A stretch of DNA of 13,044 bases from a virus (taxonomy: Duplodnaviria; Heunggongvirae; Uroviricota; Caudoviricetes): IMG/VR virus record IMGVR_UViG_2531839486_000015, one strand, 5' to 3'. Under the pieces are notes generated by a model. That model was given only the letters and a program-made list of their open reading frames with translations, made no database searches and had not been told where the DNA came from. Positions 253-13,044 of the stretch are shown here, piece by piece. Position numbers and translations under genes: made by a program. Position 1 is the stretch's first letter, and each line of letters begins with the position of its first letter.

Positions 253-747
253 ATGATGCCAGTTAGTCGTAATCGCTGCATTTTCATAAACGTTGGTTTG
301 GGAGAAGCGGCAAAACGAAATGTGGGCAACGGGGAAAACCAAATCCCTGATATGTCTTTCTGGACGGTTACTGGTGGCAATGGAAATTTTGTGATTCGTC
401 AACCTGACGGGCTAATCATTCAGATGGTTACTGTAAGTATAAGCGGTCCAGTGGCGATGAATGGAATGACTGATAATGCTTATGCCATTACAGGTTCTAA
501 TAAGTCTTATATTGCCACAGCCACATTGCCCTTTGTATTTCCTAATAAGGTGCTGGGCGTTATCCCTCTGGTATCAACAACAGTTTATGGTGGTGTATCC
601 AGTAATATTACAGGTTCATACGCGACGGCGGTTTGTTCTTTTGCCGCTGTCAGGGGGAATAATACGATTGTGTTCAAAGTCGACAAACCACTGAATGCAG
701 CCTTTCCTTTAGATACCAGCGTCTCAGCGTTAATCATTGGACGGTAA
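253..747 (+). CDS. Tail-fibre C-terminal (receptor-binding) variable cassette A; ORF as drawn starts at an ATG in the flank, and unique sequence begins after the crossover site at codon ~19
   Basis: 164-aa ORF immediately followed by, and stop-overlapping, a tail-fibre assembly gene. The first 18 residues (MMPVSRNRCIFINVGLGE) are shared with the opposing cassette because they are encoded in the inverted repeat. Weak Shine-Dalgarno; in-frame TAA at 241-243 upstream. Confidence 0.5.
   Translation: MMPVSRNRCIFINVGLGEAAKRNVGNGENQIPDMSFWTVTGGNGNFVIRQPDGLIIQMVTVSISGPVAMNGMTDNAYAITGSNKSYIATATLPFVFPNKVLGVIPLVSTTVYGGVSSNITGSYATAVCSFAAVRGNNTIVFKVDKPLNAAFPLDTSVSALIIGR
281..306. other. 26-bp Hin/Gin-type inversion crossover site (left): ttttcataaacg-tt-ggtttgggagaa
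   Basis: Two 12-bp imperfect inverted half-sites around a 2-bp core. On the reverse strand it reads TTCTCCCAAACC AA CGTTTATGAAAA, which resembles hix/gix sites as I recall them (TTCTTGAAAACCAAGGTTTTTGATAA-like). It lies exactly where the sequence between the two arms becomes unique. Confidence 0.65.
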
Positions 748-749
748 GA

Positions 750-1193
750 ATGAACTCAGTATTCTTTTCACCCGGAAGTAAAAGTTTTTATCTGCAAGAA
801 TTGTTTCCAGAATATGAGGATGCGGGAACGCTTCCTGATGATGTTATTGAAATTACCAGAGAAACATATGAGCAATTTCTTGGGCTGCATCCTGAAGGGA
901 AAGAGATTGGCGCTGACAGTTCAGGACGGCCAGTATGGATTAATTCCCCACCACCTTCAAAAGAGGATGAGGTATTGACGGCTGAAATGAAAAAAATATC
1001 TTTGGTTTCAGAAGCCAATACCTACATCAATACCCATCAGTGGCCTGGCAAAGCTGCTATTGGTCGTCTGAAAGGTGACGAGCTGGAACAATATAATTTA
1101 TGGCTGGATTATCTGGACGCACTGGAACTGGTTGATCCCTCCAGTGCTCCAGATATTGAATGGCCTACGCCTCCGGCAGTTCAGGCCAGATGA
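750..1193 (+). CDS. Tail-fibre assembly chaperone (Tfa family), cassette A
   Basis: 147 aa; position directly after the tail-fibre cassette; C-terminal ...DIEWPTPP... motif resembles the conserved Tfa C-terminus (compare cassette B ...VIWPELPEA). Confidence 0.7.
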   Translation: MNSVFFSPGSKSFYLQELFPEYEDAGTLPDDVIEITRETYEQFLGLHPEGKEIGADSSGRPVWINSPPPSKEDEVLTAEMKKISLVSEANTYINTHQWPGKAAIGRLKGDELEQYNLWLDYLDALELVDPSSAPDIEWPTPPAVQAR

Positions 1194-1767
1194 CATTCGG
1201 CACGGTGCTGGTATCTGTTGCCATCACCGCGTCAATATAATCCAGCACAGCGTTAAGCCGGGTTGTTTCTGCCTGCGTCAGTTTCCGTCCGGCCTGTAAT
1301 TTCAGCTGAATCAGACTGATGGAAGCCATTGCAGCATCAATCAGTGACTGGCGCTGTGCTTCTGCCGCGTCTACTGCGGCGTTATGCTGTGCTTCAGTAT
1401 CGGTCACCCATTTCTCACCATCCCATTTATCGTATGGAGATAAAGGGGCGATAGTGGTTGTATTTTCAGGGTAATCACCCGGAGCTTTGATTTCTTTTGA
1501 TTCTCCTGTTTCAGTGCTATAGACAATTTCACCACGGTGGTCTGGCACATATATCCATGAGTTAAAATCTTCAGAACGGCAAATTGCATAACCAGTTTTG
1601 TATGGGCCAGGAGCATCTAAACAGGAACATGCCGGAATGCCGACACCAATGGCAAGATATTCGGTTGATGTGGAAATATATTCCCGTGATTCACCATCAT
1701 AGTTATAGACGGAAATATTCCCCGCCTTCGTGGCAATAAGCTCGCTATTTAATACGGCGTTATCCAT
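1165..1767 (-). CDS. Tail-fibre assembly chaperone (Tfa family), cassette B
   Basis: 200 aa; N-terminus MDNAVLNSELIA... and C-terminus ...RLNAVLDYIDAV...VIWPELPEA are typical of lambdoid/Mu-type Tfa proteins. Start codon overlaps the stop of the upstream minus-strand tail-fibre cassette (TAATG at 1765-1769). Confidence 0.8.
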   Translation of the reverse strand: MDNAVLNSELIATKAGNISVYNYDGESREYISTSTEYLAIGVGIPACSCLDAPGPYKTGYAICRSEDFNSWIYVPDHRGEIVYSTETGESKEIKAPGDYPENTTTIAPLSPYDKWDGEKWVTDTEAQHNAAVDAAEAQRQSLIDAAMASISLIQLKLQAGRKLTQAETTRLNAVLDYIDAVMATDTSTVPNVIWPELPEA

Positions 1768-2306
1768 TATGCAGCCCTCACGATATAGTTAAATGCAATA
1801 TTACGTGGACGCGTTTCTGAGGCTGCGGCACCTAAACCAGCCACTGATTGTTTATATGTTTTAAAGGTTCCATAATCCGGTGCTGGTAATCCGGCATCGT
1901 TTGTGTTTCCTCTTTTGATAATGTCAGTGCCACTATTTACCCAGCTTTCATCAAAATAAAAATTAATCGTTGCATCAGTCACAATCGTGGATCTTGACGG
2001 TAATCCATGAGCATGATCCTCCGTTGCATACCCCTGAACAGTGAGAAGACTTCGCCCATTATCTACACCACGCCCATCATCCCAGCCACGAATAAACTCA
2101 CCGCGTAAATCAGGCAATTTATTTGTCGGGTAAGCCTTCGCCAGCTTAGGATATTCAACGGCAGAAAAAGCCGCACCGTTACATTTCAGCCAGCCAGTAG
2201 GCGGTGTTGCAGAAGGCCACGGAACAGGCACACCAACGGGTAATGCCGAACCTTCTCCCAAACCAACGTTTAAGAAAATGCAGCGATTACGACTAACTGG
2301 CATCAT
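1767..2306 (-). CDS. Tail-fibre C-terminal variable cassette B with phage tail-collar-like domain
   Basis: 179 aa; after the shared 18-aa leader it contains ...WPSATPPTGWLKCNGAAFSAVEYPKLA...LPDLRGEFIRGWDDGRG..., the hallmark motif of the phage tail-fibre collar domain. Confidence 0.7.
   Translation of the reverse strand: MMPVSRNRCIFLNVGLGEGSALPVGVPVPWPSATPPTGWLKCNGAAFSAVEYPKLAKAYPTNKLPDLRGEFIRGWDDGRGVDNGRSLLTVQGYATEDHAHGLPSRSTIVTDATINFYFDESWVNSGTDIIKRGNTNDAGLPAPDYGTFKTYKQSVAGLGAAASETRPRNIAFNYIVRAA
2253..2278. other. 26-bp Hin/Gin-type inversion crossover site (right): ttctcccaaacc-aa-cgtttaagaaaa, inverted relative to 281-306
   Basis: Inverted copy of the 281-306 site, differing at one base in the outer half-site (2273 vs 286). 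It sits 50-56 bp upstream of the invertase start. Confidence 0.65.
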
Positions 2307-2558
2307 CCCCGATTTTTATTCAAGGAGATGATCATGCTTATTGGCTATGTACGCGTGTCAACAAATGACCAGAACACCGATTTGCAACGTAGTGCGCTGA
2401 ACTGCGCGGGATGTGAGCGGATTTTTGAGGATAAAATCAGCGGCACTAAGTCCGACAGACCGGGGCTGAAAAAACTGCTCAGGACACTATCGGCAGGAGA
2501 CACGCTGGTTGTCTGGAAGCTGGACAGGTTGGGGCGCAGTATGCGGCATCTTGTTACG
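2253..2558. repeat. Right arm of the long inverted repeat; covers the crossover site, the invertase leader and the first 75 codons of the invertase
   Basis: Same comparison as the left arm. The right arm extends at least to 2558 and may be longer, since the left arm is cut by the window edge. Confidence 0.9.
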
Positions 2559-2900
2559 CTGATAGAAGAGTTACGCCAGCGTGGTGTGAATTTCAGAAGC
2601 CTGACTGACAGTATTGATACCAGTACCCCAATGGGCCGTTTCTTTTTTCATGTCATGGGTGCCCTGGCTGAAATGGAACGCGAACTGATAGTTGAACGTA
2701 CCAGGGCAGGGCTGGCTGCAGCTCGTGCCAAAGGCAGAGTAGGTGGACGCCGTCCTAAGTTGACCACCGAACAGTGGGCACAGATTGGGCGTTTACTCGA
2801 GGCCGGAGAATCAAGACAGCGTATTGCACTGATTTTTGATGTAGGCGTTTCTACCATTTATAGAAAATTTCCGGCAAATAAGAGCAATGAATCCCCCTGA
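2334..2900 (+). CDS. Site-specific serine DNA invertase, Gin/Pin/Hin/Cin family
   Basis: MLIGYVRVSTNDQNTDLQR... N-terminus with catalytic Ser9 context; ...VVWKLDRLGRS...; C-terminal helix-turn-helix ...GVSTIYRKF. AAGGAG at 2322-2327 sits 6 nt before the ATG at 2334; the longer ORF from 2328 has no spacing to that Shine-Dalgarno. Confidence 0.92.
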   Translation: MLIGYVRVSTNDQNTDLQRSALNCAGCERIFEDKISGTKSDRPGLKKLLRTLSAGDTLVVWKLDRLGRSMRHLVTLIEELRQRGVNFRSLTDSIDTSTPMGRFFFHVMGALAEMERELIVERTRAGLAAARAKGRVGGRRPKLTTEQWAQIGRLLEAGESRQRIALIFDVGVSTIYRKFPANKSNESP

Positions 2901-3042: not shown

Positions 3043-4215
3043 ATGGCTCAGGATTACCACCACGGGGTGCGCGTTGTTGAAGTCAACGAAGGCACCCGAT
3101 CTATTACCACGGTGAGCACCGCCATCGTGGGTATGGTCTGCACGGGCGATGATGCCGATGCAAAAATGTTTCCTCTTAATAAACCCGTGCTGATCACTGA
3201 TGTGCTGACTGCCAGCGGTAAAGCGGGTGAGTCAGGTACTCTGGCCCGTTCGCTGGATGCCATCGCTGACCAGGCAAAACCCGTGACCATTGTTGTGCGT
3301 GTGCCGCAGGGTGAAACGGAAGACGAAACCACGACCAATATCATCGGCGCAGTGACTGCTGAAGGTAAAAAAACAGGTATGAAAGCCCTGTTATCTGCCC
3401 AGTCACAGCTCGGCGTTAAACCGCGCATTCTCGGCGTGCCAGGCCACGACACCAAGGCGGTAGCTACTGAGTTGCTAAGCGTGGCGCAAAGCCTGCGTGG
3501 ATTTGCTTACCTGTCAGCGTATGGCTGCAAGACAGTGCAGGAGGCGATCACTTACCGCGAAAACTTCAGCCAGCGTGAAGGGATGCTGATCTGGCCTGAC
3601 TTTACTGGCTGGGACACGGTGCTGAATGCCGAAGCAACGGCATATGCCACCGCCCGTGCGCTTGGTCTGCGCGCCAAAATTGACGAGCAGACCGGATGGC
3701 ACAAAAGCCTGTCCAACGTGGGCGTGAACGGTGTCACCGGAATTTCTGCAGATGTGTTCTGGGATCTGCAGGACCCGGCAACCGATGCAGGTCTGCTGAA
3801 CCAGAACGACGTCACCACGCTTGTGCGTAAAGACGGTTTCCGCTTCTGGGGTTCCCGCTGCCTGAGTGATGACCCGCTCTTTGCCTTCGAAAACTACACC
3901 CGCACGGCGCAGGTGCTGATGGACACGATTGCAGAAGCACACATGTGGGCGGTGGATAAACCTCTTAACCCGTCGCTGGCCCGCGACATTATCGAAGGTA
4001 TCCGCGCCAAAATGCGCAGCCTGGTCAGTCAGGGCTATCTCATTGGTGGTGATTGCTGGCTGGATGAGTCGGTGAACGACAAAGACACGCTGAAAGCCGG
4101 AAAACTCACCATCGACTATGACTACACGCCAGTGCCGCCACTTGAAAATCTGATGCTGCGCCAGCGCATCACCGATCAGTACCTGGTGAATTTTGCCAGC
4201 CAGGTCAGCGCGTAA
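3043..4215 (+). CDS. FI: Contractile tail sheath protein (P2 gpFI-like)
   Basis: 390 aa; N-terminus [19 protein letters not shown]...[10 protein letters not shown]... is characteristic of P2 FI sheath; AGGAGG Shine-Dalgarno 9 nt upstream; first gene of the late operon. Confidence 0.9.
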
Positions 4216-4224
4216 GGGGACAAC

Positions 4225-4740
4225 ATGGCTTTACCACGCAAATTAAAACATCTGAACCTGTTTAACGACGGGAACAACTGGCAGGGGATCGTAGAGTCGC
4301 TGACGCTGCCGAAATTCACCCGCAAATATGAGAAGTATCGCGGCGGCGGAATGCCGGGGGCAGTAGATGTGGATCTGGGGCTTGATGACAGTGCGCTGGA
4401 CACAGAATTTTCCATTGGTGGTACTGAACTGCTGCTGTTTAAGCAGATGGGCAAAGCCACTGTGGATGGCATCCAGCTGCGCTTTACCGGCTCTATCCAG
4501 CGTGACGATACCGGGGAAGTGCAGGCTGTGGAGCTTGTGGTGCGTGGACGTCACAAAGAAGTGGATTCCGGCGAGTGGAAGACGGGCGAAAGCAACACCA
4601 CCAAAGTGACCAGTACCAACAGCTACGCGAAGCTGACCATCAATGGTGAGGTGCTCTATGAAGTGGACCTTATCAACATGGTGGAAATTGTGGATGGTGT
4701 GGACCTGATGGAAGCACACCGCAACGCACTCGGCCTCTGA
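4225..4740 (+). CDS. FII: Tail tube protein (P2 gpFII-like)
   Basis: 171 aa, size and position immediately after the sheath gene; Shine-Dalgarno AAGGGGA upstream. Confidence 0.88.
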   Translation: MALPRKLKHLNLFNDGNNWQGIVESLTLPKFTRKYEKYRGGGMPGAVDVDLGLDDSALDTEFSIGGTELLLFKQMGKATVDGIQLRFTGSIQRDDTGEVQAVELVVRGRHKEVDSGEWKTGESNTTKVTSTNSYAKLTINGEVLYEVDLINMVEIVDGVDLMEAHRNALGL

Positions 4741-4794
4741 TCTATCTGAACGGCGCGGGATACCGCGCCAGAACCCAATTTAAAGGACAGCAAA

Positions 4795-5097
4795 ATGAGC
4801 GATAAGCAGACTGAAAAGACCATTCAACTGGATACCCCCATCAAGCGCGGTAAAACGGAAATCACCGAAATTGTGCTGCGTAAACCGCAGTCCGGTGCGC
4901 TGCGCGGTACACGCCTGCAGGCCATTATGGATATGGATGTAAACGCGATGATGACCGTGATCCCCCGCATCTCCAGTCCGGCACTGACTGCACAGGAAAT
5001 TGCAGAGATGGACCCGGCAGATCTCACTGCCATGTCGGTTGAGGTTGTCACTTTTTTGTTGAAGAAGTCGGTGCTTGCCGGTTTACCGACAGCCTGA
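4795..5097 (+). CDS. E: Tail assembly chaperone gpE (zero-frame product)
   Basis: 100-aa ORF between the tube and tape-measure genes; contains slippery heptamer T_TTT_TTG at 5052-5058 near its 3' end. Confidence 0.8.
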   Translation: MSDKQTEKTIQLDTPIKRGKTEITEIVLRKPQSGALRGTRLQAIMDMDVNAMMTVIPRISSPALTAQEIAEMDPADLTAMSVEVVTFLLKKSVLAGLPTA

Positions 5098-5231
5098 CGG
5101 TTGACGATCTGGTGGCAGATATCGCCACCATTTTTCACTGGCCGCCATCCGTTACTGACGTTATGCCGCTGACCGAAGTGCTGGAATGGCGGTATAAAGC
5201 GATTCAGAGAAGCGGGGCCAACGATGAGTGA
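4795..5231 (+). CDS. E: Tail assembly chaperone gpE+E' (-1 programmed frameshift product; join 4795..5058 with 5058..5231)
   Basis: After a -1 slip at 5052-5058 the -1 frame stays open for 57 codons (VEEVGACRFTDSLTVDDLVADIATIFHWPPSVTDVMPLTEVLEWRYKAIQRSGANDE) to TGA at 5229-5231, overlapping the T start at 5224. Total about 145 aa, close to P2 E+E' size as I recall it. Confidence 0.65.
5052..5058 (+). other. -1 ribosomal frameshift slippery heptamer TTTTTTG (X_XXY_YYZ in the gpE frame)
   Basis: Codons ACT TTT TTG in the E frame; heptamer directly visible in the sequence. Confidence 0.65.
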
Positions 5232-8200
5232 TAACAACCTGCGTCTGCAGGTCATTCTTAATGCGGTTGACAAGCTCACCCGCCCATTTCGATCTGCGCA
5301 GGCCAGTTCAAGAGAACTGGCTGCTGCTGTCAAAAAATCCCGCGATGCAATAAAGCAGCTTGATCAGGCCGGGAGCAGTCTGGACAGCTTCCGAAAGCTG
5401 CAGGCAGAAAATCAGAAATTAGGCGACAGGCTGAACTATGCCCGCCAGCGTGCAAATTTGCTCAGTCAGGAACTGGGTGCGATGGGGCCGCCTTCGCAAC
5501 GTCAGGTTGTTGCTCTGGGCCGTCAACGGCTGGCTGTTCAGCGCCTGGAAGAACGCCAGAAAAAGCTGCAGCAGCAGACGGCGCTTGTGCGTGCTGAACT
5601 GTACCGGGCGGGAATTTCTGCGAAAGACGATGCGGGAGCAACTGCCCGTTTAGCCCGTGAAACATCACGTTATAACCAGGAACTTTCGAAACAGGAGGCG
5701 CGGCTGAAGCGACTGGGGGAAGCTCAGCGCAGGATGAATGCAGCGCGTGTCAGTTATGCCCGTTCGCTGGAGGTGCGTGATCGTATTGCAGGTGCCGGAG
5801 CCACCACCACGGCTGCAGGGCTGGCAATGGGCGCACCAGTGATGGCGGCAGTAAAAAGCTATACCAGCATGGAAGATGCCATGAAAGGTGTGGCAAAGCA
5901 GGTCAATGGTCTGCGTGACGATAATGGCAACCGCACTGCACGTTTTTATGAAATGCAGGATGCCATCAAGGCTGCCAGCGAACAGTTGCCGATGGAAAAC
6001 GGTGCGGTGGATTTCGCTGCACTGGTTGAAGGTGGTGCGCGCATGAACGTCGCAAACCCTGACGACAGTTGGGAAGATCAGAAACGTGACCTGCTGGCCT
6101 TCGCCAGTACGGCAGCAAAGGCGGCAACAGCCTTTGAGCTGCCAGCGGATGAACTGTCAGAAAGTCTGGGGAAAATCGCCCAGCTCTACAAAATCCCCAC
6201 CCGCAATATTGAACAGCTCGGTGATGCGCTGAACTATCTGGATGATAACGCCATGTCGAAAGGGGCAGACATCATTGATGTGATGCAACGTCTGGGCGGT
6301 GTGGCTGACCGTCTGGATTATCGTAAAGCGGCGGCGCTGGGTTCCACCTTCCTGACACTGGGCGCTGCGCCAGAGGTTGCAGCCAGTGCAGCAAACGCGA
6401 TGGTGCGTGAATTGTCCATTGCCACCATGCAAAGCAAAAGTTTCTTTGAAGGGATGAATCTGCTGAAACTCAATCCTGAAGTGATTGAAAAGCAGATGAC
6501 GAAGGATGCGATGGGAACCATCCAGCGCGTGCTGGAGAAGGTAAACGCGCTGCCGCAGGACAAGCGCCTGTCTGCCATGACTATGTTGTTTGGTAAAGAG
6601 TTTGGCGATGACGCGGCGAAACTGGCAAACAACCTGCCGGAACTGCAGCGTCAGTTAAAACTGACAGCGGGCAATGATGCGCTCGGCTCCATGCAGAAAG
6701 AATCCGACATTAACAAGGATTCACTTTCTGCGCAGTGGTTGCTGGTCAAAACCGGAGCGCAGAACACCTTCAGCAGCCTGGGCGAAACGCTGCGCCAGCC
6801 GCTGATGGATATTCTGTACACGGTGAAAAGCGTCACGGGGGCGTTGCGTCGCTGGGTGGAAGCTAACCCGGAACTGACAGGCACACTGATGAAAGCATCG
6901 GCTGTTGTGGCTGCGGTTACCGTCGGCCTCGGCACCTTAGCGGTGGCGCTGGCTGCAGTGCTGGGGCCGCTGGCAGTGATCCGTCTGGGATTCTCTGTGT
7001 TGGGTATCAAAACGTTATCTTCCGTTACGGCAGCAGTAACTCGAACCAGCAGCGCGTTGTCCTGGCTGGCTGGCGCGCCACTGGCACTGCTGCGACGCGG
7101 GCTTGCTTCATCGGGCAACGCCGCAGGGTTACTTACTGCGCCGTTGTCGTCTTTGCGCCGCACGGCATCACTGACGGGAAATGTCCTGAAAACTGTAGCA
7201 GGTGCGCCGGTTGCACTTTTGCGGTCTGGATTATCCGGTTTACGTGCTGTTGCTGTGATGTTTATGAATCCTCTGGCGGTACTGCGCGGTGGACTGGCCG
7301 CCGCAGGCACGGTGCTGCGAGTACTGGCATCTGGTCCACTGGCGATGCTGCGCGTTGCCCTGTATGCCATATCTGGTCTGTTAGGTGCTCTGCTCAGTCC
7401 GATAGGTCTTGTGGTTACTGCACTGGCGGGCGTGGCGCTGGTTGTCTGGAAATACTGGCAACCCATCACCGCATTTCTCGGTGGCGTGGTGGAAGGATTC
7501 AAAGCGGCGGCAGGTCCCATCAGTGCAGCGTTCGAACCGCTTAAGCCCGTGTTCCAGTGGATTGGCGACAAAGTGCAGGCGCTGTGGGGCTGGTTTACTG
7601 ATCTGCTGACGCCCGTTAAGTCGACCTCTGCCGAACTGCAGAGCGCAGCGGCAATGGGGCGACGATTCGGGGAGGCACTGGCGGAAGGGCTGAATATGGT
7701 CATGCATCCGCTGGACTCCCTGAAATCCGGCGTTTCCTGGTTGCTGGATAAACTCGGCATTGTCAGTAAAGAGGCTGCAAAGGCGAAACTGCCGGAAAGC
7801 GTGACGCGTCAGCAACCTGCGACGGTGAATGCAGACGGTAAAGTGATGATGCCATCGGGTGGTTTTCCGTCATGGGGATATGGCTTTGCGGGGATGTATG
7901 ACAGCGGCGGCTATATCCCGCGCGGGCAGTTCGGCATTGTCGGTGAAAACGGGCCGGAAATTGTCAACGGTCCGGCAAACGTGACCAGCCGGAGAAATAC
8001 CGCTGCACTGGCTGCGGTTGTCGCCGGAATGATGGGAGTTGCTGCCGCGCCAGCAGAGCTTCCACCGTTGCATCCTTTGGCGCTTCCCGCGAAAGGCGGT
8101 GAAGCGATGGTGAGTCGCGTAGCTGCTGTGCCGCCCGTTCACCGGATTGAGGCACCGACGCAGATCATCATCCAGACGCAGCCAGGACAAAGTGCGCAGG

Positions 8201-8301
8201 ATATTGCGCGGGAGGTGGCCCGCCAGCTTGATGAACGTGAACGCAGGCTGAAGGCAAAAGCCAGGAGTAACTACAGCGATCAGGGGGGATACGACGCATG
8301 A
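5224..8301 (+). CDS. T: Tail tape measure protein (P2 gpT-like)
   Basis: 1025 aa; coiled-coil-rich N-terminal third, a central hydrophobic region with tandem ~22-aa repeats, and its position after E/E'. Confidence 0.9.
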   Translation: MSDNNLRLQVILNAVDKLTRPFRSAQASSRELAAAVKKSRDAIKQLDQAGSSLDSFRKLQAENQKLGDRLNYARQRANLLSQELGAMGPPSQRQVVALGRQRLAVQRLEERQKKLQQQTALVRAELYRAGISAKDDAGATARLARETSRYNQELSKQEARLKRLGEAQRRMNAARVSYARSLEVRDRIAGAGATTTAAGLAMGAPVMAAVKSYTSMEDAMKGVAKQVNGLRDDNGNRTARFYEMQDAIKAASEQLPMENGAVDFAALVEGGARMNVANPDDSWEDQKRDLLAFASTAAKAATAFELPADELSESLGKIAQLYKIPTRNIEQLGDALNYLDDNAMSKGADIIDVMQRLGGVADRLDYRKAAALGSTFLTLGAAPEVAASAANAMVRELSIATMQSKSFFEGMNLLKLNPEVIEKQMTKDAMGTIQRVLEKVNALPQDKRLSAMTMLFGKEFGDDAAKLANNLPELQRQLKLTAGNDALGSMQKESDINKDSLSAQWLLVKTGAQNTFSSLGETLRQPLMDILYTVKSVTGALRRWVEANPELTGTLMKASAVVAAVTVGLGTLAVALAAVLGPLAVIRLGFSVLGIKTLSSVTAAVTRTSSALSWLAGAPLALLRRGLASSGNAAGLLTAPLSSLRRTASLTGNVLKTVAGAPVALLRSGLSGLRAVAVMFMNPLAVLRGGLAAAGTVLRVLASGPLAMLRVALYAISGLLGALLSPIGLVVTALAGVALVVWKYWQPITAFLGGVVEGFKAAAGPISAAFEPLKPVFQWIGDKVQALWGWFTDLLTPVKSTSAELQSAAAMGRRFGEALAEGLNMVMHPLDSLKSGVSWLLDKLGIVSKEAAKAKLPESVTRQQPATVNADGKVMMPSGGFPSWGYGFAGMYDSGGYIPRGQFGIVGENGPEIVNGPANVTSRRNTAALAAVVAGMMGVAAAPAELPPLHPLALPAKGGEAMVSRVAAVPPVHRIEAPTQIIIQTQPGQSAQDIAREVARQLDERERRLKAKARSNYSDQGGYDA

Positions 8302-9970: not shown

Positions 9971-10189
9971 ATGATGATTTGCCCACTGTGTGGAAGTGCC
10001 GCCCATACTCGTAGCAGTTTTCAGGTATCTTCATTGACCAAAGAGCGTTACAACCAGTGCCAGAACATTAACTGCAGCCATACTTTTGTTACCCATGAAA
10101 CTTTTGTTCGTTCGATTGCAACGCCAAAAGAGTCAAATCCGGTTCAGCCGCATCCAATGAAATCAGGACAGGTGGCGCTCTCTCTTTGA
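9971..10189 (+). CDS. ogr: Ogr/Delta-family zinc-finger late transcription activator
   Basis: 72 aa from the ATG at 9971: MMICPLCGSAAHTRS...KERYNQCQNINCSHTF... with C-X2-C...C-X4-C zinc finger. This length matches P2 Ogr; the longer ORF from 9938 adds 11 residues not expected in the family. Confidence 0.85.
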   Translation: MMICPLCGSAAHTRSSFQVSSLTKERYNQCQNINCSHTFVTHETFVRSIATPKESNPVQPHPMKSGQVALSL

Positions 10190-10424
10190 CGCTGCCGCCA
10201 ATTTGTCGCCATCGTTAAAAAACAGCGCTTCTAACATCATGATTTTAAAAGGCATAAATTTCAGGCAACAAAAAACCCATCAACCTTGAACCGAAATGGC
10301 GGGGGTGATGGGCTCCACAAAATGGGGACATCAAAGAAAAGCAGTGGCACTAATTAAGACTGATGCCCTGCGGAAAAGTTCTGCGGTTGTGCAAAAAAAT
10401 TTCATTTTCAGGGCAACTTCAGTT

Positions 10425-12110
10425 TTATCCTAATCCTGGCCATACCATGACGATGATTGTCCCTGCCAGCGTCAGCAGGACGTTGGCGATTGCATAGGTG
10501 CCCGCATAGCCCAGCGCCGGGATGTTACTGCGAGCTGTATCACTGATGATCTCCATTGCCGGCGCGCAGGTACGTGCGCCCATCATTGCGCCGAACAACA
10601 GCGCGCGGTTCATTCGCAATACATAAGCACCGAACAAGAAACAGATAACCACGGGCACCAGACTGACAATCAATCCGGCAATCAACATCTGACCGCCAAT
10701 CGCGCCCAGGCCGTTATTAATACCGCTACCGGCGCTCAGACCAACGCCTGCCATAAACACCATCAAGCCGAACTCTTTCACCATGCTTAATGCACCCTGC
10801 GGAATGTAACCGAAGGTCGGGTGGTTAGCACGCATAAAGCCCAGCATAATTCCGGCGAATAACAACCCGGCAGCGTTCCCCATGCCGAAACTGAATGTGC
10901 TGAACTGGAAGGTGATCATCCCGATCATCAGCCCAATAACAAAGAAGGCGCAAAATGCCAGCAGGTCAGTGACCTGGCTGTGAATCGAGATAAAGCCGAT
11001 GCGATCGGCGATGGTTTTTACGCGACGGGCATCACCGCTGACTTGTAAAACGTCACCTTTGTTAAGCACGACGTTGTCATCTATCGGCATCTCAATCTGG
11101 CTACGAATGACGCGGGTAAGGAAGCAACCGTGATCGGTCAACTTCAGTTGTGCGAGACGTTTACCTACAGCGTTATGGTTTTTAACGACCACTTCTTCAG
11201 TGACGATACGCATGTCGAGAAGGTCACGATCGAAAACTTCTTTACCGTTACGGAAGCTGGGATCGAGTCGGGCATGGGCGTCGGGATAGCCTACCAACGC
11301 TATTTCATCGCCCATTTGTAGCACGGCATCACCGTCTGGATTTGCCAGAATCCCGTTACGTCGAATACGTTCAATGTAGCAGCCGGTTTGTCGATAAATA
11401 CCCAGTTCACGCAGATTTTTGCCGTCGGTCCAGGCCACCAGCTCCGGGCCGACGCGATAGGCGCGGATCACCGGTAAATAAACCTTACGGTTGGCATCAG
11501 TGTCCAGGCCACGTTCGCGGGCGATTTGCTGGGCGCTGGTCTGTAAGTCCTGATGCTGCAATTTCGGCAAGTAACGCGCACCAACAATCAAACTCACCAG
11601 ACCGATTAAATAGGTTAAGGCATACCCGAGGCTCAGATTATCCAGTGCCAGTGAGAGCTGCCTGCTTTCCATGCCGGAATGACGCAGTGTATCGCCAGCA
11701 CCGACCAGAACCGGTGTCGACGTCATAGAGCCTGCTAACATACCGGCCGTCAGGCCAATATCCCAGCCAAACAGCTTACCTAACCCTAAGGCGATCACCA
11801 GCGCACTGCCAACCATCACCAGTGCTAACATTAGGTAATTTTTCCCATCGCGAAAAAAAATGGAAAAAAAGTTCGGTCCGGCTTCAACCCCAACACAGAA
11901 AATAAACAGCATAAAGCCAAGATTAAGCGCATCGGTGTTAATGCTGAAATGTTGTTGGCCTAATAACAGCGATACGACTAAAACGCCAATGGAATTACCC
12001 AGTTGGATCGAACCAAGTCGTAACTTTCCGAGACATAGCCCAAGCGCGAGGACCACAAATAATAACAGAATGTAATTCCCATTTAACAATTCGGCGACGT
12101 TTATATTCAC
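10425..12110 (-). CDS. ybjL: Putative transport protein YbjL (AAE-family transporter with two cytoplasmic TrkA_C domains)
   Basis: 561 aa; [38 protein letters not shown]...; GTG start; recognised as E. coli YbjL. Confidence 0.9.
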
Positions 12111-12379: not shown

Positions 12380-12757
12380 GTGAAACATAAACAACGTTGG
12401 GCGGGGGCAATCTGCTGTTTTGTCCTCTTCATTGTGGTGTGCCTTTTTCTGGCGACGCACATGAAAGGCGCTTTTCGGGCTGCCGGGCATCCTGAAATCG
12501 GCTTGCTATTTTTCATTCTTCCTGGAGCAGTCGCCAGCTTCTTTTCACAGCGTAGAGAAGTCCTGAAACCTCTGTTTGGCGCAATGCTGGCGGCACCCTG
12601 TTCGATGCTCATTATGCGGCTGTTTTTTTCACCGACGCGCTCATTCTGGCAAGAGCTGGCATGGTTATTAAGTGCGGTGTTCTGGTGTGCGCTGGGGGCA
12701 CTGTGTTTCTTATTTATCAGTAGTTTGTTTAAACCACAGCACAGAAAAAATCAGTAA
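12380..12757 (+). CDS. ybjM: Inner membrane protein YbjM
   Basis: 125 aa hydrophobic protein; GTG start with AGGAGG Shine-Dalgarno at 12368-12373; lies between ybjL and grxA as in the E. coli K-12 order. Confidence 0.8.
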   Translation: MKHKQRWAGAICCFVLFIVVCLFLATHMKGAFRAAGHPEIGLLFFILPGAVASFFSQRREVLKPLFGAMLAAPCSMLIMRLFFSPTRSFWQELAWLLSAVFWCALGALCFLFISSLFKPQHRKNQ

Positions 12758-12786: not shown

Positions 12787-13044
12787 TCAGGCGTCCAGAT
12801 TTTCTTTCACCCATGCAGCAAAATCGGTATAGCCGCCGATATGTTGCTGATCGACAAAAATCTGCGGCACGGTTTCTACGGGTTTACCTGCCTTTTGTTG
12901 TAGATCTTCTTTAGTGATCCCTTCCGCACGAATATCTACATAGTGATACTGAAAATCATCGTGTTCATTGCTCAATTTCTCAGCCAGATCTTTTGCACGC
13001 ACACAGTAAGGGCAACCCGGACGACCAAAAATAACGGTTTGCAT
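12787..13044 (-). CDS. grxA: Glutaredoxin 1
   Basis: 85 aa; MQTVIFGRPGCPYCVRAKDLAEKL... with CPYC active site; complete within the window (start codon at complement 13042-13044). Confidence 0.92.
   Translation of the reverse strand: MQTVIFGRPGCPYCVRAKDLAEKLSNEHDDFQYHYVDIRAEGITKEDLQQKAGKPVETVPQIFVDQQHIGGYTDFAAWVKENLDA

Follow-up and report, generated by a model that had tools for sequence, protein, structure and literature searches.

A P2-like tail operon in an Escherichia coli prophage very probably contains a P2-type programmed -1 ribosomal frameshift, by which the two proteins E and E+E' would be made from one start codon. The site lies in the window, by which we mean the whole stretch of 13,044 nucleotides of DNA that was analysed (IMG/VR: IMGVR_UViG_2531839486_000015). 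Its gene content identifies the window as part of a P2-like (Peduoviridae) E. coli prophage that adjoins the host gene ybjL, namely the late right arm. The frameshift is of a known kind with a known mechanism and is an ordinary feature of a widespread E. coli prophage. The sole new point, which is read from the sequence, is a conserved ribosome-binding-like motif just 5' of the slip site. The mechanistic interest of the site lies in a weak slippery heptamer that is strictly conserved, with no support for a conserved downstream structure and with the conserved Shine-Dalgarno-like (SD-like) motif alongside. For annotation, a joined coding sequence (CDS) would give the true 145-aa product and not a free-standing 39-aa protein. 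In biological terms, the site is the sign of a P2-like tail module that seems intact.

The tail module and its two reading frames

The tail operon in the window has the gene order FI-FII-E-E'-T-U-D. The sheath gene FI (3043-4215, plus strand) carries Phage_sheath_1 / Phage_sheath_1C domains and the tube gene FII (4225-4740, plus strand) a Phage_tube domain. E/E' follows the tail tube gene FII and precedes the tape measure gene T, as the P2-type location requires. A preliminary description of this DNA had considered the tail module to be intact, and indeed each of the ORFs FI, FII, E, T, U, D and ogr is full-length and shows the Pfam domains to be expected.

The last prophage gene on the right is ogr (9971-10189). 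Beyond it come the E. coli core genes ybjL (10425-12110, minus strand), ybjM (12380-12757) and grxA (12787-13044, minus strand), so that the attachment junction must fall in about 10190-10424. On the other side, 5' of the tail genes, there is an invertible tail-fibre cassette (253-2900). It is composed of a fibre C-terminus with Gp53-like_C (253-747, plus strand), a fibre assembly gene (750-1193, plus strand), an inverted second assembly gene (1165-1767, minus strand), an alternative Collar-domain fibre tip (1767-2306, minus strand) and a Hin/Gin-type serine invertase (2328-2900, plus strand). The arrangement has the look of a switch of host range similar to the G-segment of Mu or the C-segment of P1.

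Gene E, annotated by us as a P2 gpE-type tail assembly chaperone from its translation, Pfam match and RefSeq entry, extends on the plus strand from the ATG at 4795 to the TGA at 5095-5097 in the ORF list and encodes 100 aa. An AGGA Shine-Dalgarno sequence can be read at 4784-4787 (plus strand), 7 nt 5' of the ATG. The frame-0 product matches Phage_TAC_7 (Pfam: PF10109) over profile positions 1-78 of 79 with an E-value of 1e-18 and 67.5 bits (cut-off 25), and its RefSeq product is WP_001281009.1, named 'phage tail assembly protein'.

The slippery heptamer T_TTT_TTG is located at 5052-5058 on the plus strand. It is assigned by its X_XXY_YYZ phase in the E frame, by the P2 motif and by its conservation. 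The E-frame codons at the heptamer are ACT (5050-5052), TTT (5053-5055) and TTG (5056-5058), and from this TTG codon to the E stop there are 13 codons, with 12 sense codons in between. The -1 frame has a stop at 5040-5042, after which 62 open codons run from 5043 to the TGA at 5229-5231. The first ATG, GTG or TTG in this open frame comes only at 5112, the stretch 5043-5111 being without any of them. Gene T for the tape measure protein (5224-8301, plus strand, 1025 aa; ORF list and PhageMin_Tail, Pfam: PF10145) starts with an ATG at 5224, and the E' stop overlaps this start in the 8 nt ATGAGTGA. The preliminary description had placed the heptamer 13 codons before the gpE stop and the end of the -1 frame at 5229-5231, overlapping the tape-measure ATG; phase and all coordinates agree with the sequence.

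In the proposed mechanism the majority of ribosomes on gene E would stop at the TGA at 5095 and release the 100-aa gpE. A minority would slip back by 1 nt with TTT (5053-5055) in the P site and TTG (5056-5058) in the A site, both tRNAs re-pairing with TTT/TTT at 5052-5057. Reading would then continue in the -1 frame from G5058 to the TGA at 5229-5231 and give the E+E' protein. Gene T, for the tape measure protein, begins inside the E' stop. Conceptual translation of the fusion gives 145 aa, with 88 residues in frame 0 through the TTG followed by 57 residues in frame -1, so the two proteins would have their first 88 residues in common; the predicted junction includes VVTFLVEEVGACR. The E' segment (5058-5231, plus strand, 57 aa plus the stop at 5229-5231) is defined by its translation after the slip, its Pfam match and its homology to P2 E'. 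The -1 extension is a Phage_P2_GpE domain (Pfam: PF06528) with an E-value of 2.9e-18, covering profile positions 1-37 of 37. This match, at fusion residues 107-143, is seen only when the conceptual fusion is scanned and comes from the -1 extension. A search of the PDB sequences with the family profile returned nothing meaningful (E-value 0.35); a solved relative is not detectable by sequence.

Comparison with P2, lambda and other phages

In the GenBank record of P2 (AF063097) gene E, a joined two-piece CDS for E+E' and a misc_feature 'site of -1 translational frameshift' at TTTTTTG are annotated. The record says of E+E': 'shares amino terminus with gpE; -1 frameshift; essential tail protein'. 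P2 and the window share TTTTTTG in the same phase, the gene order FII-E-E'-T, a 62-codon open -1 frame and the overlap ATGAGTGA, the last of which is common to the window, P2, PSP3, ENT90 and SEN8. Aligning the conceptual E+E' product to P2 gpE+E' (142 aa), a check proposed with the preliminary description, gave 49% identity over 139 residues (E-value 4e-51) with no gap through the junction. E' alone is 56% identical to P2 E' (E-value 8e-24). An extension without similarity to E' proteins, which the preliminary description had named as evidence against its reading, was not what we found, given this identity and the PF06528 match. Its proposal of the P2 E/E' mechanism is supported in that the E and E' parts are both homologous to P2 and the heptamer is kept in phase among relatives.

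The two phages differ in detail. Past the shift codon, E continues for 13 codons in the window and for 7 in P2, so gpE has 100 aa compared with 91 aa, while E+E' has 145 aa compared with 142 aa. The tape measure protein has 1025 aa in the window and 815 aa in P2; if tail length scales with tape-measure length, the tail of this prophage would be about a quarter longer than that of P2.

For P2 itself, Lynch et al. (PMC3091744) and Lee et al. (PMC3931495) give a shift at TTTTTTG (T6G), with E of 91 aa and E+E' of 142 aa, and describe E' as being without a ribosome binding site and overlapping T. The same papers report, referring to Christie et al. 2002 (J Bacteriol 184:6522), that the P2 frameshift was experimentally shown and that the fusion is produced and essential. 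In the window, gpE and E+E' would work jointly, at a set ratio to one another, as chaperones of tail assembly around the tape measure protein; this role is suggested by homology with P2 and by analogy with the lambda system. We likewise infer that the slip occurs in this prophage and how frequently it does so. In P2, frameshifting is said to amount to about 10%.

The preliminary description had also drawn an analogy to the G/GT frameshift of lambda, and this analogy stands for function and position and fails for sequence homology. The lambda gpG/gpGT chaperone frameshift is the subject of Levin et al. 1993 and Xu et al. 2004, 2013 and 2014. In lambda, as in the window, a pair of overlapping ORFs separates the tube/major tail gene from the tape-measure gene. 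A -1 slip, which happens at low frequency shortly before the first ORF ends, leads to a fixed ratio of short to long chaperone (review PMC5009743). The slippery sequence of lambda is G_GGA_AAG compared with T_TTT_TTG in the window, and the window phage is, unlike lambda, contractile-tailed. In the Pfam scan only PF10109 and PF06528 were detected, and homology to lambda gpG or gpT was not found. The resemblance is thus functional and positional and is not one of family membership.

Among close relatives, the prophages in E. coli A41 and 20A24 match the E/E' stretch with 100% identity, Escherichia phage 500465-1 (Wadgaonvirus, Peduoviridae) and Klebsiella phage KP12 with 99%, and Salmonella phage SEN8 (Felsduovirus) with 86%. 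Relatives of E/E' with at least 80% identity are present in 999 out of 5426 complete E. coli genomes, which is about one in five. Phages 500465-1, KP12 and SEN8 have the identical heptamer, the 13-codon spacing and the overlap with T.

Conservation of the heptamer and annotation of E'

The bare heptamer word occurs at chance level, with 4 copies in the window on both strands compared with 4.0 expected from shuffles. We estimate the chance of an in-frame heptamer on the right strand inside the 52-nt two-frame overlap at about 0.3%. The case for the frameshift rests on position, phase, homology and conservation.

Conservation was assessed in two sets of relatives. The phage set has 17 loci, one of them from a near-identical phage, and covers phages of Escherichia, Salmonella, Klebsiella, Erwinia, Burkholderia, Ralstonia, Pseudomonas, Mannheimia, Vibrio, Acidovorax and Zymomonas. 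In each of the 17 loci the two-frame overlap contains an X_XXY_YYZ heptamer in the E frame; it is T_TTT_TTG in 13 of them and T_TTT_TTC, T_TTT_TTT, G_GGA_AAG, C_CCT_TTC or A_AAT_TTT in the others. The second set comes from a species-level scan with one genome per species and a 5-sequence alignment as the query, which gave 80 loci, 77 of them with a full-length match. T_TTT_TTN was found at the equivalent codons in 76 out of these 77 prophages, with G as the last base in 61, A in 12, C in 2 and T in 1. A lack of the heptamer in related prophages had been named beforehand as evidence against the frameshift; instead, an in-frame heptamer was present in 17 of 17 phage loci and T_TTT_TTN in 76 of 77 species.

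The exception is Candidatus Symbiopectobacterium (locus L052, about 900-1115), where E and E' are fused in a single frame. The TTTTTTG word is still there in this locus and the segment 5' of it is shortened. Either a natural fused variant or the decay of a prophage in a symbiont may account for the one-frame E/E'.

The codon usage at the site shows clear selection on the heptamer at the nucleotide level, beyond the amino acids. The codon 5' of the heptamer, whose last base is the first T of the motif, has 10 forms coding for 9 amino acids (T, G, N, L, S, Y, F, I and V) and ends in T in 76 out of 76 sequences, whereas T makes up 16% of the third positions in the rest of these genes. All 76 Phe codons at the site are TTT, while elsewhere TTC outnumbers TTT by 21 to 3, and Leu at the site is always TTR, compared with 25% elsewhere.

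One further explanation for a product spanning both frames is that RNA polymerase slips on the T6 run, so that transcripts with one U more or less are translated normally into E+E'. A homopolymeric T run is the typical substrate for such slippage, and in some relatives the run is T7 or T8. In most relatives, however, it is only T6, and transcriptional slippage in bacteria is generally efficient at runs of about 9 or more. Transcriptional slippage would also be indifferent to phase, yet all 76 sequences have the run in the X_XXY_YYZ phase, with a flanking base that is almost always G or A. We consider slippage of the polymerase most improbable as the source of E+E'.

The position and phase of the heptamer are kept across species whose proteins share only 45-50% identity. 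This bears on the idea that the heptamer and the open -1 frame arose by chance or have decayed in a defective prophage and that no E+E' is made. Such a relic would fit the chance frequency of the bare heptamer in the window as well as the prophage copies with frameshifted T and D genes, for instance the one in strain A41. Against it, the tail ORFs in the window are all intact and E' is under strong purifying selection, as its identity to P2 E' and its full-length Pfam match indicate; together with the conserved position and phase, this leaves a relic with next to no probability. The E. coli A41 prophage is of the same type as the one in the window, and its T and D genes are marked as frameshifted pseudogenes in the record.

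More distant gpE/E' homologues have other motifs, namely G_GGA_AAG in Mannheimia phage 587AP1, C_CCT_TTC in Klebsiella phage ST16-OXA48phi5.4 and A_AAT_TTT in Escherichia phage 503458. They keep the two-frame layout with these other in-frame heptamers, which suggests that the frameshift is conserved more deeply than the particular slippery sequence.

The annotation of E' varies between records. Besides P2, joined E+E' CDSs are given in the records of PSP3 and KL3. In the records of 500465-1, KP12 and SEN8, E and E' are two CDSs that are not joined, and SEN8 names the second 'tail protein E''. PGAP also keeps them as two CDSs in the E. coli 17MR471 record, WP_001281009.1 and WP_000763311.1; in the same RefSeq record an IS1 transposase is joined as a 'programmed frameshift'. 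The RefSeq entry for E' is a stand-alone 39-aa 'GpE family phage tail protein' with a GTG start (5112-5231, plus strand), which we read as the C-terminal part of E+E'.

If the annotation by PGAP and several phage submitters were right, E' would be an independent small gene of 39 aa that is initiated at GTG 5112 and requires no frameshift. A GTG or ATG is present at this position in 52 out of 58 enterobacterial-type relatives, while in the other 6 ACG, GCG, GTC or ATT replaces the start codon. No SD-like match was found 5' of 5112. The five -1 frame codons before the GTG are conserved (L 100%, T 94%, V 86%, D 84% and D 86%), and conservation of the -1 frame reaches back to the heptamer, with V89, G93, L101 and D105 invariant in an alignment of relatives. 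Independent initiation would moreover leave the nucleotide-level selection on the heptamer unexplained. A separate E' gene is accordingly very unlikely. The joined CDS advised in the preliminary description is a fair call, because RefSeq lists E' as a separate 39-aa gene with a GTG start; we propose join(4795..5058,5058..5231), as RefSeq/PGAP and most phage records split E'.

An antisense ORF of 169 aa (4824-5333, minus strand) also spans E/E'. It is interrupted in 50 out of 89 relatives and is most likely not a gene. Similar antisense 'hypothetical proteins' are annotated in Erwinia phage ENT90.

Sequence elements flanking the heptamer

Upstream of the heptamer there is an internal SD-like element, GAGGTT in the window and GAGGTG in most relatives, at 5041-5046 on the plus strand. 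It lies 5 nt 5' of the heptamer and is a candidate stimulator or pause site. The best complementarity to the 16S rRNA 3' end (anti-SD) within 4795-5231 is GAGGTTGTCA at 5041-5050. Averaged over 89 distinct relatives, the anti-SD duplex energy drops sharply to its minimum, about -6 kcal/mol, at -15 to -10 relative to the heptamer, and outside the flanks of the motif (-16 to -9) it never falls below -2.5 kcal/mol between offsets -90 and +40.

The element is conserved synonymously, with a strong codon bias. At its codon -4, Glu is encoded by GAG in 64 and by GAA in 5 sequences, compared with 108 GAG to 246 GAA elsewhere in these genes; the sequences are related, so these statistics are not independent and a Fisher P value overstates their independence. 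At a second Glu column (-19), which is conserved and has the same phylogeny, GAA is found 54 times and GAG 14 times. The third base of the element's Glu codon is G in 80 of the 89 sequences regardless of the amino acid, and the Val of the element is GTG in 59 out of 74, compared with 47% elsewhere. The element is weaker in the window (GAGGTT) than in most relatives (GAGGTG), reads AAGGTG in P2 and is missing in some clades, namely Burkholderia, Vibrio MAR and Zymomonas.

In E. coli reporters, U_UUU_UUG gave 0.12% frameshifting without a stimulator, 0.25% with the IS911 stimulators and 0.77% with the IS3 pseudoknot (supplement of PMC4066793). Since the heptamer is intrinsically weak in these reporters, a stimulator in its context is plausible. 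We infer from the sequence that the GAGGTT/GAGGTG element might pause the ribosome or put it under tension and so raise slippage on the weak heptamer. The element would pair with the 16S rRNA 3' end and thereby keep the ribosome in place during elongation while the slippery codons occupy its P and A sites. It is possible, though we put this forward only tentatively, that the conserved GAGGTG(G) 5 nt 5' of T_TTT_TTG gives this heptamer its useful efficiency in P2-type sites. If the motif is a stimulator, it would help to explain how P2-like phages set the ratio of E to E+E'.

The spacing between element and heptamer is 5 nt when counted from GAGGTG and 7 nt when counted from GAGG. This is at or under the short end of the range reported to be stimulatory for -1 shifts; SD-like stimulators have been sought 6-17 nt 5' of -1 motifs (Sharma et al. 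2014, PMC4066793). As in the dnaX and IS911-type signals, the window has an anti-SD-complementary element at a short fixed distance 5' of an X_XXY_YYZ motif that is conserved synonymously. It differs from them in that its spacing is shorter, a supporting downstream hairpin was not found and stimulation is putative. In E. coli dnaX the spacing between SD and heptamer is reportedly 10 nt. As the spacing is shorter than that of dnaX, the tail operons of Peduoviridae could have in it a widespread upstream stimulator that forms a class of its own. A description of the GAGGTG(G) element of P2-type sites was not found in a literature search, which did not extend to the primary P2 paper.

The preliminary description had suggested looking for RNA structure after 5058, and folding, RNAalifold and covariation do not support a conserved stimulator there. 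The 52 nt 3' of the heptamer (5059-5110) fold no better than shuffles (MFE z-score -0.62), nor does the equivalent stretch of P2 (-1.2 and -0.56), and RNAalifold gave 0 consensus pairs for 58 aligned relatives. Lynch et al. (PMC3091744) found no hairpins in three Burkholderia P2-like phages, and the same paper cites Xu et al. 2004 for the absence of a downstream hairpin in P2.

A local hairpin of 6 bp, GUCGGU...ACCGAC (5067-5090, plus strand), is present in this lineage 8 nt 3' of the heptamer. As a conserved stimulator, this pairing of 5067-5072 with 5085-5090 is not supported, since its covariation is weak and not robust; 78% of the cells are paired, and the counts of pairs and of pair types are at or below those of shuffles. 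A GCCG/CGGC mini-hairpin of many relatives was rejected, as it shows no covariation and is absent from the window.

Longer folds are more stable than shuffles, with z-scores of -2.9 for 5059-5140 and -2.5 for 5059-5200, these low scores coming from a hairpin at 5111-5129, at a distance of 52 nt from the heptamer. This hairpin, GGUGGC/GCCACC (5111-5116 with 5124-5129), is followed by AUUUUU inside E' and was flagged by the terminator scan. All 6 pairs are present in 42 out of 58 enterobacterial relatives, and 4 sequences preserve one pair through a double change. Conservation does not extend to the U tail. The stem codes for the conserved VADIAT motif.
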